A stretch of 61,237 nt of DNA from Patescibacteria group bacterium (GTDB lineage Bacteria; Patescibacteriota; Minisyncoccia; UBA6257; 2-01-FULL-56-20). Shown here one piece after another: positions 4,573-45,053 of this stretch. The DNA is taken from assembly GCA_038063755.1 (NCBI GenBank), contig JBBTUL010000001.1, positions 1 to 61,237 of the forward strand, read 5' to 3'. The translations under genes and the position numbers were made by a program. Position 1 is the first letter of the stretch; each line of letters opens with the position of its first letter. Below the pieces are notes generated by a model that had not been told where the DNA came from, searched no databases, and saw nothing but the letters and a program-made list of their open reading frames with translations.

Positions 4573-4876
4573 ATATGAACTGGCTTTCTTCTCCTCCAAA
4601 AAACTCACGGACGAATTGCGAAAACAGATCGCTATCCTCATAGGCAGCCCTCCGCAACCCCCGGACAACTACATTCGGAACCAAGCCTCCGGAAAGCTCG
4701 ACTTCGTTCGTAATTACTCCAAATCTCACGCTCCGACTCGTGGAATAGAAAAGATCTCCCACAATGCTTCTGCGCAGAACTGAGCGAGGTTTAAATATAA
4801 GCCCTGAGTCCTTCCCGAGGTAGTAGTAAAACCTGTTTACCAAAATCTCGCTTGGAAGATTTGGCAAATTCTTCAC
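4571..4876 (-). CDS. Hypothetical protein (101 aa, GTG start)
   Basis: Fills the mrdA-galT gap and is followed by a hairpin; no recognisable motif. Confidence 0.5.
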   Translation of the reverse strand: MKNLPNLPSEILVNRFYYYLGKDSGLIFKPRSVLRRSIVGDLFYSTSRSVRFGVITNEVELSGGLVPNVVVRGLRRAAYEDSDLFSQFVREFFGGEESQFI

Positions 4877-15299: not shown

Positions 15300-15337
15300 G
15301 ATTCTTTATTATACCCTATCGGACAGTAAAAAAATCT

Positions 15338-16207
15338 TCACCACGAAGACGGACCCAGGAGGTTCGTCCAAGCATATGTCCCGCCGTTCTGACGGATACA
15401 TGCCTGGACCGTGTCGGTTGCCACCGCATTTTGCACGATCCAAACCGTCCCACGCTGGGATGAATCGCATGTTGGTTGCGCGGTCGCGGTATTTACGCGG
15501 ATCCCGCCATTTACCTCAAGCGTCTGTCCGGGAGAAACAACTCCCACGCCGACGTTTGATCCGCTGAAATATATCGTGTTATTGACCGACTGCCAGTCTC
15601 CGGCGGAAGCACCGAGCTTGTAAATGTTTCCGGTTGACGGAACAACGTTTGAATCAAATGTCGCCGCCGAAACACGAGCGATTGCCGTATCGAGTATCTG
15701 CGTAAAGCGCTGCTGCGGATTCGCCGTTACGTATTCTACGGTGAAATCAACGGCGACCGAATCGTGCCCTGGCGGGTTCGCTCTTTTTTTAAACGCCATG
15801 CTCGAAACCGTCACTCGATTCGACGTAAGCGCCGTAAGAGATCCTGCGTCCGTTTCTCGCAGGTAGACCACCCCATCCTGAACGATAATATACGTCGGGT
15901 CTGCGGTTGAGGATGCCATGCGAAGCTTGAGCGTCGTAGTGCTCGTATCCGTCGGCATCTCAATCACGCTCGATTTTTCCACGAGGCGCTGAATATTTTG
16001 GAGAACGAATTGGCTCTGTCCGTTTACCTCGGCCGCAGCGATTTGGCGGACTTGTACGCGCGTAACGCCAACCAAAATTCCAAGAAATCCGATCATCGCT
16101 CCGCTGAAAATGGCAACGAACAGCAAAAGCTCGATTAAGGAAAAACCTTCTCGAGAATCCAGTAAATAGAATCTAGAAGCTAGTAGCCGACGTAGCCGAT
16201 TTACCAT
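15338..16207 (-). CDS. Type IV pilin-like protein (prepilin N-methylation motif)
   Basis: REG|FSLIELLLFVAIF class III signal; C-terminal Cys pair and fibre-like repeat. Confidence 0.88.
   Translation of the reverse strand: MVNRLRRLLASRFYLLDSREGFSLIELLLFVAIFSGAMIGFLGILVGVTRVQVRQIAAAEVNGQSQFVLQNIQRLVEKSSVIEMPTDTSTTTLKLRMASSTADPTYIIVQDGVVYLRETDAGSLTALTSNRVTVSSMAFKKRANPPGHDSVAVDFTVEYVTANPQQRFTQILDTAIARVSAATFDSNVVPSTGNIYKLGASAGDWQSVNNTIYFSGSNVGVGVVSPGQTLEVNGGIRVNTATAQPTCDSSQRGTVWIVQNAVATDTVQACIRQNGGTYAWTNLLGPSSW
16167..16186 (+). repeat. Left arm of a perfect 20-bp inverted repeat flanking the four-helix-bundle gene
   Basis: TAGAATCTAGAAGCTAGTAG; reverse complement at 16610-16629. Confidence 0.92.
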
Positions 16208-16216
16208 ATGGGGTAA

Positions 16217-16573
16217 TTATAACTTATTGAGCACCGTATTTATCATCTTCATTACCTCGCCAAGCTCGGCTTCCAGAGCCGCATATTCCACACCGCTCAA
16301 ATATCCCAACTCTAGGGCGATTATGAGTTGCGTTTCGACCTCCGCACCGGAACCATAAGCTATCCGTAAAAATTGTGTTTTTTCGCCTGAATGTTTTCGA
16401 TTGAATCCTTCTGCGATGTTCGACGGGATCGAAACACCCGCCCTTCTTAGCTGACTTGTCAGTCCATATGTTTCTTCCCGAGGAAACCGGTCAGTCGCCT
16501 TATAAAGACGGATGACAAAATCTTTGGCTTTCTGCCACATAATAAGGTCTTTGTACGATTTCACGTTTCCCAT
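16217..16573 (-). CDS. Four-helix-bundle protein (TIGR02436 / 23S rRNA IVS protein-like family)
   Basis: SYKDLIMWQK, FPREETYGLTSQLRRAGVSIPSNIAEG, GSGAEVETQL. Start placed at ATG 16573 because the TTG at 16609 lies in the repeats. Confidence 0.92.
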   Translation of the reverse strand: MGNVKSYKDLIMWQKAKDFVIRLYKATDRFPREETYGLTSQLRRAGVSIPSNIAEGFNRKHSGEKTQFLRIAYGSGAEVETQLIIALELGYLSGVEYAALEAELGEVMKMINTVLNKL

Positions 16574-16609
16574 GTTTGGAGCTTCTAAATCCTGATTTTC
16601 GAATCTCAA

Positions 16610-16629
16610 CTACTAGCTTCTAGATTCTA
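16610..16629 (-). repeat. Right arm of the 20-bp inverted repeat
   Basis: CTACTAGCTTCTAGATTCTA on the plus strand, inside a 7-bp periodic tract spanning 16581-16643. Confidence 0.92.
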
Positions 16630-16640
16630 ACTTCTCTATT

Positions 16641-18119
16641 CTATCTCCTATCTTTCGGAGTTACCCAAAAACCAAGTCTGAATTTTCCTCCAAGCATAAG
16701 ACGGGTCTGCGCCTCGAGTCCGGGAAATGCACCGAAAATAATGAGCGTAATCGGGATGAAAATCCACTCAACAACATAGAGCGCGTAGTGACGCATGCGG
16801 AACCACTTTGGTTTCGGCGGTAAAAGAACGACGCTCATAATAGCCGAAGTCGCGACCCCAACCATTGAAAGACCGATCACGAAACGAGTGATGCGCGGAA
16901 GGCTGTACGAGAGAAGTGACGCGCCGAAGGCCATTCCTCCGAGCGCGACCGGAAGCCAGCCGAGCGCAAAAATCATAAGCGAGTTCGTCGCCCAGGAGTG
17001 GTACCCCTCAAGCACGGTGAACGTCCAAAAGATCTTCCTTCGTGTCGAAATTTTTTTGCTTTTGCGAAGACCGTCCAAAAGGTACGGCACGTTTTCCGAT
17101 CCCCATCCCCATCTTCGCTGTTGCAAATAAAGATTTTTCATCGTCCCCCAAAATGTCGGCGCAACATTCGCGTCCATCGAAACAGGATATTCAAGCGGCA
17201 CAACCTTGAAATCTCCTTCGTAATGCAAAAAACATTGCCAAAATATTCGTGAATCCTCTGAAACCATGTCGGTGTGCCAATACCCGACATCCAAAAGCGC
17301 GGTGAAGGGAATTGATTGCGAAGAAAATGAAGTAAGGCGCTCAGGACGAGCCTGCTGCATCATCTGCCAGAATGTTGCGGAAAAAGATACCACTCGGGCG
17401 AGCGCGGGAGCCTGAAACACGTTGTTGGTGAAAAACGGAACGGGCTGATAGATGGCTCGCAGACGATCTGGTGTGTCAAGAAAAAGATAGGTAAGTCGTC
17501 CAAAATATTCCGAGAAAACTTGAGTGTCAATATCAAAAACCGAAACCAAAATATCTTCGTACGGAATATGGCGCGCATCCACGATTTCTTTCTTTGCCTG
17601 TTTTATCGCCCATGTTTCGTTTGCCCCTTTTCCGGCAAGCTCTCCAGAGATATCTCCAGGGTGATTTGTTACAAGAAAGCTTCCAAACTTCTCGCCGAAT
17701 TCCTTCTTTATCCTCTCGCCGACCGTTCGCGCCGCCTCCCCCGCTCTCTCCTCAAGGGCAAGTACGACATGAAGCTTCTCCTTCGGATAGTTTCCTTGAA
17801 GAATCCTTGAGAAGCTATCCAGAACAACCTCGTATGGCTCCTTATACATAGGGAAGAGTACGAGGTGCTGAACTCGGCCCCAATCCCCTTCAAATCGCTC
17901 GTTGAGTCGCAAAAGCCAGTTTTCACTCATATTTCTCTTCATTGCAAGAAACGCGACGCGTAGATGAAAAGAAAGGTAAATAGTCTTGAGAAGCCAATAG
18001 ACATCAAAAAGAATAATGAAAACCGAAACCGCAGCAGGCAGTTTCCACGAAAAAACCACCATGAGGATGAGGGTTGTCCACGCAAGCGCTCCTGGAAGAA
18101 TTTCGAAAAACCGATACAT
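16641..18119 (-). CDS. Glycosyltransferase family 2 membrane protein (cellulose-synthase-like)
   Basis: LAGKGAN, DID (DxD), SEDS, QQRRW (QxxRW) motifs with flanking TMs. Confidence 0.9.
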   Translation of the reverse strand: MYRFFEILPGALAWTTLILMVVFSWKLPAAVSVFIILFDVYWLLKTIYLSFHLRVAFLAMKRNMSENWLLRLNERFEGDWGRVQHLVLFPMYKEPYEVVLDSFSRILQGNYPKEKLHVVLALEERAGEAARTVGERIKKEFGEKFGSFLVTNHPGDISGELAGKGANETWAIKQAKKEIVDARHIPYEDILVSVFDIDTQVFSEYFGRLTYLFLDTPDRLRAIYQPVPFFTNNVFQAPALARVVSFSATFWQMMQQARPERLTSFSSQSIPFTALLDVGYWHTDMVSEDSRIFWQCFLHYEGDFKVVPLEYPVSMDANVAPTFWGTMKNLYLQQRRWGWGSENVPYLLDGLRKSKKISTRRKIFWTFTVLEGYHSWATNSLMIFALGWLPVALGGMAFGASLLSYSLPRITRFVIGLSMVGVATSAIMSVVLLPPKPKWFRMRHYALYVVEWIFIPITLIIFGAFPGLEAQTRLMLGGKFRLGFWVTPKDRR

Positions 18120-18154
18120 TAAATTGGATTACCGCAATTTATGCGCTTCCCAGC

Positions 18155-18768: not shown

Positions 18769-19032
18769 TAACTCTATATCCTAAAAAGCGTTTTGTTTGC
18801 CAGGTATTATATCGGCATCACTGCCAACCAAAAGGAGAGGCTTGATAAACACAACGCCAGTGAAGTAAGATCTACCAAGGCATACTCTCCATGGAGGCTT
18901 GTATATAAAGAAGGATTTTCAGAAAGAACCTCTGCTCGGAAACGAGAGATATTTCTGAAAAGAACTGCTCGAGCAAGAAAAGAGCTTTTTGAAAGAATCG
19001 AGAAAATGCCGCCATCGTCTAGCCTGGCCTAG
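18769..19032 (+). pseudogene. Small GIY-YIG nuclease gene with a disrupted start
   Basis: In-frame LYILKS...RYYIGIT...ERLDKHN...E...ARKRE..LK is preceded by GTG-TAA; the TTG ORF at 18793 lacks the first YIL strand. Confidence 0.7.
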
Positions 19033-28451: not shown

Positions 28452-30692
28452 ATGGAAGCACTCGATACGCGCTACAACCAAAACGAAGAACCTGATATTT
28501 ACGATCTATGGGAAAAATCAGGAATCTTTACTCCGGAAACATCCAAGAAACGGGGAATAACCGATGCGGAAGCTCCGCCTTTTGTCGTGGTGCTACCCCC
28601 TCCAAATGTGACCGGAACCCTTCATATCGGACATGCATTTGAAGACACCGTCCAAGATATTTTCGTTCGCTACCATCGCATGCTCGGAGAGCCAACACTT
28701 TGGATTCCAGGTACCGATCATGCCGCAATAGCCACTCAAGCAAAAGTTGAGAAAATACTCAGCAAAGAAGAAGGGAAATCGAAATACGATCTCGGACGAG
28801 ATGAATTCTTAAAACGCGTAAACGCGTTTGCAAAAGAAAGTCACGACACCATTACGCGGCAAATCCGCCGCCTTGGAGCGTCGCTTGACTGGAGTCGTGA
28901 AGCTTACACGCTCGATGAAAAACGAAATCTTGCGGTCCGAACCGCCTTTAAGCGAATGTACGATCTCGGCCTTATTTATCGAGCTGATCGCATCGTAAAC
29001 TGGGACCCAAAAGGGCAGACAGTAATTTCGGATGACGAAGTGGTCTATGAAGAGCGCCCTGCAAAACTTTACACCTTCCGCTATTCCAAAGACTTCCCTA
29101 TCTCCATCTCAACCACTAGACCAGAGACGAAAGTCGGAGACACCGCGGTTGCGGTTCATCCCGAAGACCAACGATACAAGAAATTTGTTGGAAAAATATA
29201 CGAAGCGAATTTTTGCGGAGCTCAGATCAAGGTGAAGATCGTCGCCGACTCCTCTGTCGAAAAGGATTTCGGCACCGGAGCACTCGGCGTTACTCCCGCG
29301 CACAGCATGATCGACTGGGAAATAGCATCTCGACACGACCTTCCATTGGTGCAGGTGATAGATGAATATGGAAAAATGATGGTGGAAGATGTGCGCTTAA
29401 AAGGAAAGAAGACAATCGAAGCGAGAGAAGTAATCGTGGCATGGCTGAAAAACGAGGGCCTTCTCGAAAAGGAAGAGGACGTCACGCAAAATGTTTCGAC
29501 ATCAGAACGAACGGGAGCCGTAATAGAACCGCTTCCGAAACTTCAGTGGTTCATTGGCGTGAACAAAGAATTTGTCCTTGAGCACTCAAGCATCCACGGC
29601 ATTCCTTCGGGGTCAAAAACAACGCTCAAAGAAATCATGAGGAAGTCAGTCTCTGAAAAACAAATAAAGATTCTCCCAGAGAGATTTGAAAAGGTTTACT
29701 TCCATTGGATAGACAATCTTCGCGACTGGTGTATTTCGCGACAGCTTTGGTTCGGACATCGCATTCCCGTCTGGTACCGTTCGACTGACGCTCACGGCAA
29801 GCCGAACGGTATCCCGAGCGATAGTCGAGGGGTCGAAACTTATGTGAACGTCGAGCCACCGAAGGGCTCGGATTGGGAACAGGACTCCGACACGCTTGAT
29901 ACCTGGTTTTCTTCCGGCATGTGGACTTTTTCGACCCTGGGATGGCCCGAGAAAACAGAAGACCTTAAGCGGTACCACCCAAACGCGTTCATGTGTCCGG
30001 GGTACGAAATTATCTTCATGTGGGTCGCCCGTATGATTTTGATGAGCGGATGCCTTTTGGGGGAGATCCCTTTTCGTACCGTTCTCTTCCACGGCATCGT
30101 CCGCGACTCGCAAGGAAGAAAGTTCAGCAAATCCATCGGAAATGGTATTGACCCTTTGGAGCTCGCGAATACCTATGGTGCCGATGCGCTACGCATGGCG
30201 CTCGTGATCGGTGCTGCGCCGGGAAACGATGTAACATTTAGCGAAGATAGGGTTCGGGGATACAGGAACTTTTCGACAAAGATATGGAACCTCGCCAGAT
30301 TCCTGCGCATGAATTCGCGACCTGAGTTCTCGCACGGCAACCACAAATTCGACGAAGGCGACAGAGCGACGCTTCAGGAGTTCGAAGCCGTTAAGAAGGC
30401 GGTGACCAACCACATTGAGAACTTCGACCTGCACCTCGCCGCAGAAGGCCTATACCACTACGTCTGGCACACGTTCGCCGACAAGGTGGTCGAAGAGGCA
30501 AAGCCGCGCCTCCAGGGAGATGATTCTGAAAAAGCTCACAGAGCCTACCACCTTCTCGATCACATTCTTGTCGATTGCTTAAAGATGCTGCATCCATTCA
30601 TGCCATTTGTAACGGAAGCTGTATATCGAAAATCTCACCCGAATGATCTTTTGACAGAAGAACGCTGGCCATATATTCCCCACGTCGAGTAG
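28452..30692 (+). CDS. valS: Valyl-tRNA synthetase, short (no C-terminal coiled coil), with a 17-aa repeat-derived insert
   Basis: PPPNVTGTLHIGH; DWCISRQLWFGHRIP; DTWFSS; KFSKS. Confidence 0.96.
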   Translation: MEALDTRYNQNEEPDIYDLWEKSGIFTPETSKKRGITDAEAPPFVVVLPPPNVTGTLHIGHAFEDTVQDIFVRYHRMLGEPTLWIPGTDHAAIATQAKVEKILSKEEGKSKYDLGRDEFLKRVNAFAKESHDTITRQIRRLGASLDWSREAYTLDEKRNLAVRTAFKRMYDLGLIYRADRIVNWDPKGQTVISDDEVVYEERPAKLYTFRYSKDFPISISTTRPETKVGDTAVAVHPEDQRYKKFVGKIYEANFCGAQIKVKIVADSSVEKDFGTGALGVTPAHSMIDWEIASRHDLPLVQVIDEYGKMMVEDVRLKGKKTIEAREVIVAWLKNEGLLEKEEDVTQNVSTSERTGAVIEPLPKLQWFIGVNKEFVLEHSSIHGIPSGSKTTLKEIMRKSVSEKQIKILPERFEKVYFHWIDNLRDWCISRQLWFGHRIPVWYRSTDAHGKPNGIPSDSRGVETYVNVEPPKGSDWEQDSDTLDTWFSSGMWTFSTLGWPEKTEDLKRYHPNAFMCPGYEIIFMWVARMILMSGCLLGEIPFRTVLFHGIVRDSQGRKFSKSIGNGIDPLELANTYGADALRMALVIGAAPGNDVTFSEDRVRGYRNFSTKIWNLARFLRMNSRPEFSHGNHKFDEGDRATLQEFEAVKKAVTNHIENFDLHLAAEGLYHYVWHTFADKVVEEAKPRLQGDDSEKAHRAYHLLDHILVDCLKMLHPFMPFVTEAVYRKSHPNDLLTEERWPYIPHVE

Positions 30693-40733: not shown

Positions 40734-40830
40734 GTTTCTTTATCCCGCCCATGGGCGGGATCCACGATGGCGCAGTTCGGCTTCGCCGAAGCGCCATCGG
40801 GACAATTTTGGCAATTCCTGGTTTCCTGAT

Positions 40831-44384: not shown

Positions 44385-45053
44385 TCAGACAGATTCATGA
44401 AAGCTCTTCCCTACAGCTCCCCAATCGACGATATTCCACCAGTTTTCTATATACTCCGCGCGGCGGTTTTGATACTTCAGATAATAGGCGTGTTCCCAAA
44501 CATCAAGCGCCAAAACCGGTTTCTTGCCCTGCGACAGGGGCGTATCCTGATTCGGGGTTGTAAGGATCTCAAGGCCAAGTCCTTCGGCGGGGCTCCCCTC
44601 GGCTCTGCTCGGGACAGGCAGGACAATTCCTTCGGGGTTACTCAGGACAAGCCACGTCCAACCGCTACCGAATACTTTAAGCGCGGAGTCCGTAAACGCT
44701 TTCTTGAAATCCGCAAACGACCCGTACGCACCCGCGACCGCAGTTGCAAGCTCGCCCTGCGGCTCGCTTACACCCCCCGCAGGCGCAAGAAGCGTCCAAA
44801 AAAGCGAGTGGTTCAGGTGTCCCCCGCCGTGGTTCTTTACCGCGCCGCGAATGTCCTCGGGAACGGCATCCAAATTCTTCAAAAGTTCCTCAAGCGGGGT
44901 CTCCGCTATTTCGGGGTGCTTTGCGAGAGCCTCGTTCAGCTTATCGACATAGGCCTGGTGGTGCTTTGCGTGGTGCAACTCCATCGTTCGCGCATCGATG
45001 AATGGCTCAAGCGCATCGTATCCGTACGGCAGTTTCGGCAGTTCGTATTTCAT
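44385..45053 (-). CDS. sodA: Fe/Mn superoxide dismutase with a 23-aa repeat-derived insert
   Basis: [10 protein letters not shown]; [13 protein letters not shown]; DVWEHAYY. Confidence 0.96.

Follow-up and report, generated by a model that had tools for sequence, protein, structure and literature searches.

The 61,237-nt stretch analysed here (the window: Patescibacteria group bacterium, an ultra-small organism of groundwater, assembly GCA_038063755.1, contig JBBTUL010000001.1, positions 1 to 61,237, forward strand) carries a small cassette in which a gene encoding a four-helix-bundle (4HB) protein is enclosed by two mutually reverse-complementary arrays of 7-nt units. The cassette lies between a glycosyltransferase-like (GT) gene and a pilin-like gene and has the architecture of the intervening sequences (IVS) of 23S rRNA that bear an open reading frame (ORF). 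The favoured reading, held to be somewhat probable, is that this heptamer-armed 4HB cassette is cut at the RNA level and that it has been co-opted by the pilin gene. Its features and those of its neighbours are sorted by position; all are on the minus strand.

15338–16207, minus strand: type IV pilin-like gene with a 21-residue leader (MVNRLRRLLASRFYLLDSREG, then FSLIELL after the cleavage point); assigned from its translation, its orthologues and a weak match to the XpsI pseudopilin model.
16154–16642, minus strand: the whole cassette, 489 bp (5′ arm, 4HB gene, pilin start module, 3′ arm), delimited by the inverted repeat.
16154–16186, minus strand: 3′ (downstream) arm, which is also residues 8–18 of the pilin leader (LLASRFYLLDS), from the repeat and the translation.
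16205–16207, minus strand: pilin start codon, which the cassette carries 3′ of the 4HB stop and 5′ of the downstream arm.
16216–16221, minus strand: TATAAT, a −10-like hexamer that overlaps the 4HB stop and lies 8 nt 5′ of the pilin ATG.
16217–16573, minus strand: 4HB gene, 118 aa from its ATG (alternative TTG start at 16609), PF05635/TIGR02436.
16607–16654, minus strand: 5′ (upstream) heptamer array, in the sense direction AGATAGG AGATAGA ATAGAGA AGTTAGA ATCTAGA AGCTAGT AG; its paired part is 16610–16642.
16641–18119, minus strand: membrane glycosyltransferase-like gene, 492 aa, with a QQRRW motif; weak PgaC/IcaA match (E 2.3e-5) and 80 orthologous loci.

The 20-bp inverted repeat around the 4HB gene, described in an initial annotation made from the sequence, is real. 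Its perfect 20-nt core is TAGAATCTAGAAGCTAGTAG at 16167–16186 (plus strand), with the reverse complement at 16610–16629 (minus strand). No further match to it was found across the window at up to 3 mismatches, nor any in 100 shuffles. Pairing of the arms reaches 33 nt at 85% complementarity (16154–16186 with 16610–16642), with a spacer of 423 nt. Save for a small palindrome at 40742, this is the sole perfect inverted repeat of at least 14 bp within 3 kb in the whole window; about 3e-5 pairs of 20 bp are expected by chance (own arithmetic). The 7-bp periodicity holds as well: the right arm (16607–16654) is best at lag 7 and is the only tract of the 61 kb with at least 19 of 28 self-matches (lags 4–11 scanned), its period being given as 14 by Tandem Repeats Finder. 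The upstream array comprises about 5 to 6 heptamers and ends 36 nt before the 4HB gene; the downstream array comprises 3–5 units. TATAAT, the pilin ATG and the leader-coding left arm are where the annotation placed them, both in the sequence and in the translation. Its layout is kept with one correction: the last four GT codons and the GT stop (16641–16643) fall within the upstream heptamer array, the stop overlapping the right arm. No Rfam match was found in 15300–17300, and a promoter and terminator scan near the arms gave nothing above chance. Two other in-frame repeats of the window, at sodA and valS (44580–44648 and 29780–29832), were set aside as a different, GC-rich repeat without heptamers.

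By its profile matches, the enclosed gene is a member of the PF05635/TIGR02436 (23S rRNA IVS protein) family: PF05635, E 4.6e-39, 133.3 bits (cut-off 33.8); TIGR02436, E 9.7e-37, 125.5 (cut-off 24). The nearest solved structure is PDB 2GSC (E 4e-21), that of XCC0516, the crystallised relative of the window protein. The family is very large and includes solved structures; to our knowledge, it has no known function outside Avd, the accessory protein of diversity-generating retroelements. The window protein shares with Avd the four-helix-bundle fold and pentameric relatives (PF22296, E 1.8e-6). It was nevertheless rejected as an Avd: its score on the equivalog model NF033474 (26.8) is below the cut-off (80), and its neighbours are a GT and a pilin gene. 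Neither a reverse transcriptase nor a template/variable repeat pair was seen beside the gene, no systematic search for them having been made.

Sequence comparison establishes that close relatives of the gene, in many phyla, typically have the inverted heptamer layout. The nearest homologues of the 4HB protein were fetched as 80 loci, and 84 homologous genes with their flank pairs were analysed (Patescibacteria, Bacteroidota, Planctomycetota, Omnitrophota, Nitrospirota, Atribacterota and others). For the highest-scoring inverted repeat between the two 150-nt flanks of a gene, the median score is 14, against a median of 8 and a maximum of 13 for 433 displaced controls. The best period is 7 nt in 73/84 upstream flanks and 67/84 downstream flanks, against 24/314 controls. 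At each locus, the upstream flank and the reverse-complemented downstream flank carry one and the same unit, mostly in arrays of 3–5. The unit varies by locus: TAGCCAC, AGGTTGC, CGTGAAG, AGTGAAT, TAGAATG and others. Rotated into register, the units have a T-N-G-T core (T 78%, G 77%, T 83%; 4.2 bits, null maximum 3.1). Flanking heptamer inverted repeats, by which the annotation had proposed to judge the homologues, are therefore present around most close ones, and reverse-complementary 7-nt arrays lie directly 5′ and 3′ of the ORF there as in the window. The 4HB gene is co-oriented with its upstream neighbour in 71/79 loci, usually 25–80 nt behind it; just 2/74 genes oppose both neighbours. In two Planctomycetota genomes (L041:1878–2483 and L062:2856–3458; L numbers designate loci), the cassette with its heptamer arms lies between co-oriented tRNA-Met and tRNA-Glu genes, i.e. 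in a stable-RNA operon. A chance meeting of two microsatellite tracts has nothing to commend it beyond the low complexity of the arms; it is refuted by the recurrence across 84 loci, the shuffles, the flank controls and the uniqueness in the window, and its probability is negligible.

The closest known system is the ORF-bearing rRNA IVS. In Coxiella burnetii, the S23p IVS has 428–444 nt, a terminal stem of 28 bp and tandem GACAGAT heptamers, which vary in copy number from strain to strain; it is cut in vitro by RNase III at the first repeat, and its ORF is reported as decaying (PMC4990558). Features shared by the window cassette and the ORF-bearing 23S rRNA IVS (Coxiella, Leptospira): a PF05635 ORF in the loop of a terminal stem (about 28 bp in the IVS), tandem heptamers in the arm 5′ of the ORF, a size of about 430–490 nt, the lack of a recombinase, as far as a crude motif scan of the window goes, and the existence of gene-less versions. 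Features that differ: the window cassette lies between protein-coding genes and not in helix 45 of 23S rRNA; its 3′ arm doubles as coding sequence for a pilin leader, and the element contains the pilin start; its ORF is well conserved (62–70% among site orthologues), whereas that of Coxiella is decaying; and its excision by RNase III is deduced by analogy. Of the properties that define an IVS, the terminal-repeat stem is present (33-nt arms, predicted 24-bp closing stem) and the location in an rRNA helix is not (GT and pilin flanks, no Rfam match). The cassette is thus not an IVS proper. In a full-text search of the literature, heptamers were linked to the 4HB gene in the Coxiella paper only. 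A survey of rRNA inserts in bacteria of the Candidate Phyla Radiation (CPR) lists 23S_rRNA_IVP ORFs in 16S and 23S inserts, with the arms unmentioned.

The orthologous junction was compared in 80 metagenomic loci with GT orthologues (53–69% identity), many of which preserve the order DoxX–GT–pilin–P183–P129–adhesin. The empty orthologous sites that the annotation had proposed to look for do exist, together with filled and gene-less ones. Filled sites (5 loci: L092, L110, L114/L115, L150): the 4HB gene, 62–70% identical, lies between inverted heptamer arrays, and its orientation is the same in 6/6 sites, the window included. Gene-less hairpins (L084, L088, L099/L100, L122): the two heptamer arrays have 14–31 paired positions (28–31 in 3 of 4) and enclose a loop of 27–66 nt, in which a TGnTATAAT-like element and the pilin ATG are found; the hairpin of L113 is a degenerate version. 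Tight empty junctions (L082/83, L087, L090, L094/153, L098, L106): the distance from the GT stop to the pilin Gly(−1) codon is 11–31 nt, and the pilins have short leaders (MKVRRG, MERRG, MRRG, MKLRAG). The orthologues are too diverged, at this GT identity, to define insertion boundaries.

The six site-resident 4HB genes form one clade among the 84 homologues (SH-aLRT 93; 0/500 label shuffles as clustered), and the sequences therefore most likely record one old acquisition in a CPR ancestor, followed by vertical inheritance at about the pace of the host genes and by repeated losses of the ORF that left a hairpin. The gene-less hairpins are read as outcomes of 4HB gene loss. In a quick GT tree, filled and hairpin sites fall together in one region; the 26 rows of a clade with support 100 show tight junctions only or no pilin downstream. 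The internal branching of the 4HB and GT trees, with few columns and weak support, speaks neither for nor against congruence. The cassette may have been gained once, or it may have been present ancestrally and cleanly lost once. The cassette at this site looks old, vertically inherited and not recently mobile. No target-site duplication, mobility enzyme or movement was seen, and the window holds a single copy.

The pilin gene has taken over the 3′ end of the cassette as its start and as an 11-residue leader extension, because the frame through the arm is kept open, the only usable start codon belongs to the cassette and is closely preceded by a −10-like element. The order is ATG, seven codons, the arm-encoded LLASRFYLLDS and then the prepilin cleavage motif (REG, FSLIELL after the cleavage point); no other in-frame ATG, GTG or TTG occurs 5′ of the G–FSLIE motif. 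The 3′ arm is open in the pilin frame at every filled and gene-less site. The resulting leaders are 7-aa-periodic: ILHSTFYILHS (ILHSTFY ILHSRKG), LLDSGFWILNS, FLDSSFIIHYS and others. TATAAT is made by the end of the 4HB ORF itself (AAG TTA TAA T, last codons and stop) and is a putative pilin promoter. A TGnTAnAAT-like element is found 6–11 nt 5′ of the pilin ATG in most relatives, empty sites included, where in tight junctions it sits within the GT coding end; an own pilin promoter with a near-leaderless mRNA therefore looks ancestral in this CPR lineage. The 4HB and pilin genes also share a reading frame, with only TAA and three codons (TTA CCC CAT) between them (16205–16219), which is probably incidental.

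The proposed mechanism is as follows. A read-through transcript from the GT gene would carry both arms and fold into a stem of 24–33 bp; the predicted sense RNA has a 24-bp closing stem in the minimum-free-energy and centroid folds alike (z = −3.6). Duplexes from about 20 bp upwards are, in general, substrates of RNase III. Given this long-duplex rule and the cutting of the Coxiella IVS by RNase III, the read-through RNA should be cut here. By analogy with that IVS, cutting of the stem would separate the GT message from the 4HB and pilin part, and it would sever the pilin frame at codons 8–18 in the read-through RNA. This would leave, as the only source of pilin, near-leaderless transcripts that start at the pilin's own −10 element and carry the 3′ arm alone. 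The arrays would probably be recognised by the 4HB pentamer through the T-N-G-T core of their units.

Several observations weigh against RNA-level cutting and its generality. No RNA run holds the stretch, so neither read-through nor cleavage was seen. Among 57 dereplicated loci, 80 arm mismatches are G:U-compatible on the sense strand versus 71 on the antisense strand (p = 0.52), and mismatches by transversion are commoner (205). Selection for a sense-strand RNA stem is thus undetectable, since wobble mismatches show no strand excess. In several relatives, a −10-like element lies between the 5′ arm and the 4HB ATG, and transcripts started there would be without the 5′ arm. The homologue set consists of the nearest relatives of an armed gene and is not a random sample of the family; it includes about 16 orthologous Chryseobacterium loci. 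Of the options raised in the initial annotation, an IVS-like element in an mRNA context draws support from the architecture and the comparative evidence, no cutting by RNase III having been observed.

Another of these options was a cassette that travels with its heptamer arms. In its favour are the arms around most homologues, the filled, gene-less and empty sites and a second 4HB gene in L115; no movement was observed. This second gene (L115:5190–5528), placed between the pilin gene and P183, comes from another 4HB clade. Its TAGCCAT/TAGGGTA units are akin to the TAGCCAC-type units that its clade-mates in other lineages carry (L002–L005). Its sequence points to an independent insertion and offers evidence that protein and arms may move together.

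Alternatively, the arrays might serve at the DNA level, double- or single-stranded, as inverted sets of sites bound by the 4HB pentamer or by some enzyme, RNA pairing being a by-product; this account is possible and is judged doubtful. The protein would maintain or spread its cognate arrays or repress promoters between them, as may be compared with repetitive extragenic palindromic (REP) sequences around the genes of REP-associated tyrosine transposases (RAYT) and with transposon subterminal repeats. It fits the lack of a G:U bias in the arm mismatches and the T-N-G-T core, which is kept across phyla and is strand-specific relative to the gene. The unit of the resident arms recurs at neighbouring junctions that have no 4HB gene (L092 at 7342 and 8446; L150 at 3318, 3886, 3959 and 5814), and the arms of gene-less hairpins flank a −10 element. 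Protein identity also tracks unit similarity (Spearman 0.20; 0/500 permutations), a correlation that may be plain common descent. Against DNA-level action, the 4HB family has no known DNA-binding or catalytic activity, neither a target-site duplication nor movement was seen, the 61-kb window has a single pair of arrays, and the Coxiella arms demonstrably act as an RNA stem (PMC4990558). The comparison with REP/RAYT (REPIN) is partial. Alike: a single gene flanked by an inverted short repeat that also occurs gene-less elsewhere. Unlike: the 4HB protein is without transposase or nuclease motifs, the repeats are tandem heptamer arrays and not REP palindromes, and no movement was seen.

Dispersed heptamer repeats bear on the same account. 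Heptamer repeats are described as over-represented and unexplained in bacteria, with 186 GGGAATC arrays in Xanthomonas, mostly of four units and in 70 cases in convergent pairs (PMC4692102); Geobacter heptanucleotide elements of four and five units are also described (PMC2700814). These repeats (Xanthomonas GGGAATC, Nostoc/Calothrix STRR, Geobacter) resemble the arrays studied here in their tandem 7-nt units, mostly about 4 per array, their intergenic position and their frequent convergent pairs, and differ in that the window has a single pair of arrays and not a dispersed family. One array of the 186-copy Xanthomonas family favours a DNA-level link: in the supplementary table, array #15 (4 units) overlaps the annotated XCC0516 start and is separated by 6 nt from bccP (XCC0517) (PMC4692102). 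A search of its supplements for the S23/four-helix family gave no match, and XCC0516 is labelled only 'conserved' in the table; likewise, the repeats are not linked to the 4HB family in the available text of either study (PMC4692102, PMC2700814).

A wider reading can be advanced tentatively. PF05635 pentamers and heptamer arrays would form one pan-bacterial gene–repeat system in which each subunit reads one unit through the T-N-G-T core. The gene would travel with inverted cognate arrays and seed gene-less arrays at cistron boundaries; the heptamer excess and the rRNA IVS would have this origin, and hosts would exapt the arms, as in the CPR pilin.

In contrast to these accounts, the remaining option of the initial annotation, an invertible pilin switch, is not borne out and is considered very improbable. 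Recombination between the 20-bp arms would flip 16187–16609 and uncouple promoter and ATG from the pilin gene. The perfect 20-bp arms around a −10-like element and the pilin ATG speak for such a switch, and pilins are classic phase-variable genes. The likeness to invertons (fimS, Bacteroides capsule promoters) is that of inverted repeats around a promoter-bearing segment beside a surface-structure gene. Unlike invertons, the locus has no invertase found and no second orientation in relatives or contigs, and its arms belong to the 4HB family and not to the pilin. All six orthologues have one orientation, 71/79 homologues are co-oriented with their upstream neighbour and 2/74 are opposite to both, and the gene-less loops of 27–66 nt are judged too short for recombinase-mediated inversion. 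Orientation was checked on Logan contigs of 7 groundwater metagenome runs, not on raw reads, so that rare variants would be missed. Contigs of runs X1 and X2 span both arms in the window orientation, the other runs holding low-coverage fragments; no inverted or deleted joint and no change in copy number was found in the contigs of the 7 runs. No recombinase emerged from a crude motif scan of the window, its single match, in an antisense frame of a PBP2-like gene, being a false positive.

The hairpin could also belong to the host, as a terminator, a stabiliser or a pilin attenuator at the GT 3′ end, with the 4HB gene as a passenger in its loop; this is held unlikely. Gene-less hairpins persist at the junction in several lineages, and also occur after GT genes without a pilin downstream (L095, L096, L102); the pilin frame through the 3′ arm is conserved. 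All of this speaks for a host hairpin. However, the arms go with 4HB genes in unrelated contexts and phyla, tRNA operons and rRNA included, the 4HB clade at the site is as old as the hairpins, and the 26-row GT clade does without any hairpin.

The cassette belongs to a recurrent and essentially unpublished class, in print only as the Coxiella IVS. The locus links the 4HB family, the unexplained heptamer repeats and the rRNA intervening sequences. We know of no accepted origin for the latter in 30 years. Two properties are specific to the locus. First, the orthologous sites of CPR bacteria grade from filled through gene-less to empty, and their resident gene is monophyletic. Second, the host has clearly co-opted the element, which supplies a surface-pilin gene with its start codon and 11 leader residues. 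The locus also opens a direct biochemical question, namely whether the protein binds its own heptamer array and in which form of nucleic acid.

Additional observations at the GT–pilin junction and around it are given below. In L156 (3527–4070), the same junction holds a 102-aa ORF, a GIY-YIG nuclease by sequence reading only, inside a different inverted repeat of 36 nt with a loop of 330 nt; here too, heptamers encode the leader of the pilin (LPTTYHLLPTSS). Judging from these sequences, the junction appears to be a hot spot for small selfish genes. The window itself has a small GIY-YIG gene at 18793–19032, assigned from reading the sequence. The C-terminal GT codons (window 16647) are also matched by a contig in runs X3 and X7, which comes from another organism in the same groundwater samples. 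Beyond the GT stop, this contig runs into TAATTAGCCACTAGGGATT, a TAGCCAC-type array and perhaps part of a different kind of cassette at this junction.

Heptamer arrays or hairpins are also found directly 5′ of the GT start, at the DoxX–GT junction (L150:3318–3992, L122:3957–3995, L088:3957–3999); neither is present in the window DoxX–GT gap (18120–18154). In L092 (7339–8498), P129 and two small ORFs of 89 and 57 aa lie within a second inverted TAGAATG pair, whose unit is that of the L092 4HB arms. The 3′ arm of this pair reads through in frame (FLHSTFYILHS) as part of an ORF situated where the adhesin-homologous region begins. In Bacteroidota, long perfect arrays built of other units occur near 4HB genes: in Psychroflexus, a (ACCAGTTG)n array of period 8 downstream of the gene (L056:3340–3420), and in Chryseobacterium (L008, L009, L020), (GCAACAA)n or (GCAATAA)n arrays about 1.4 kb downstream of the gene (~4730–4820 or 6208).

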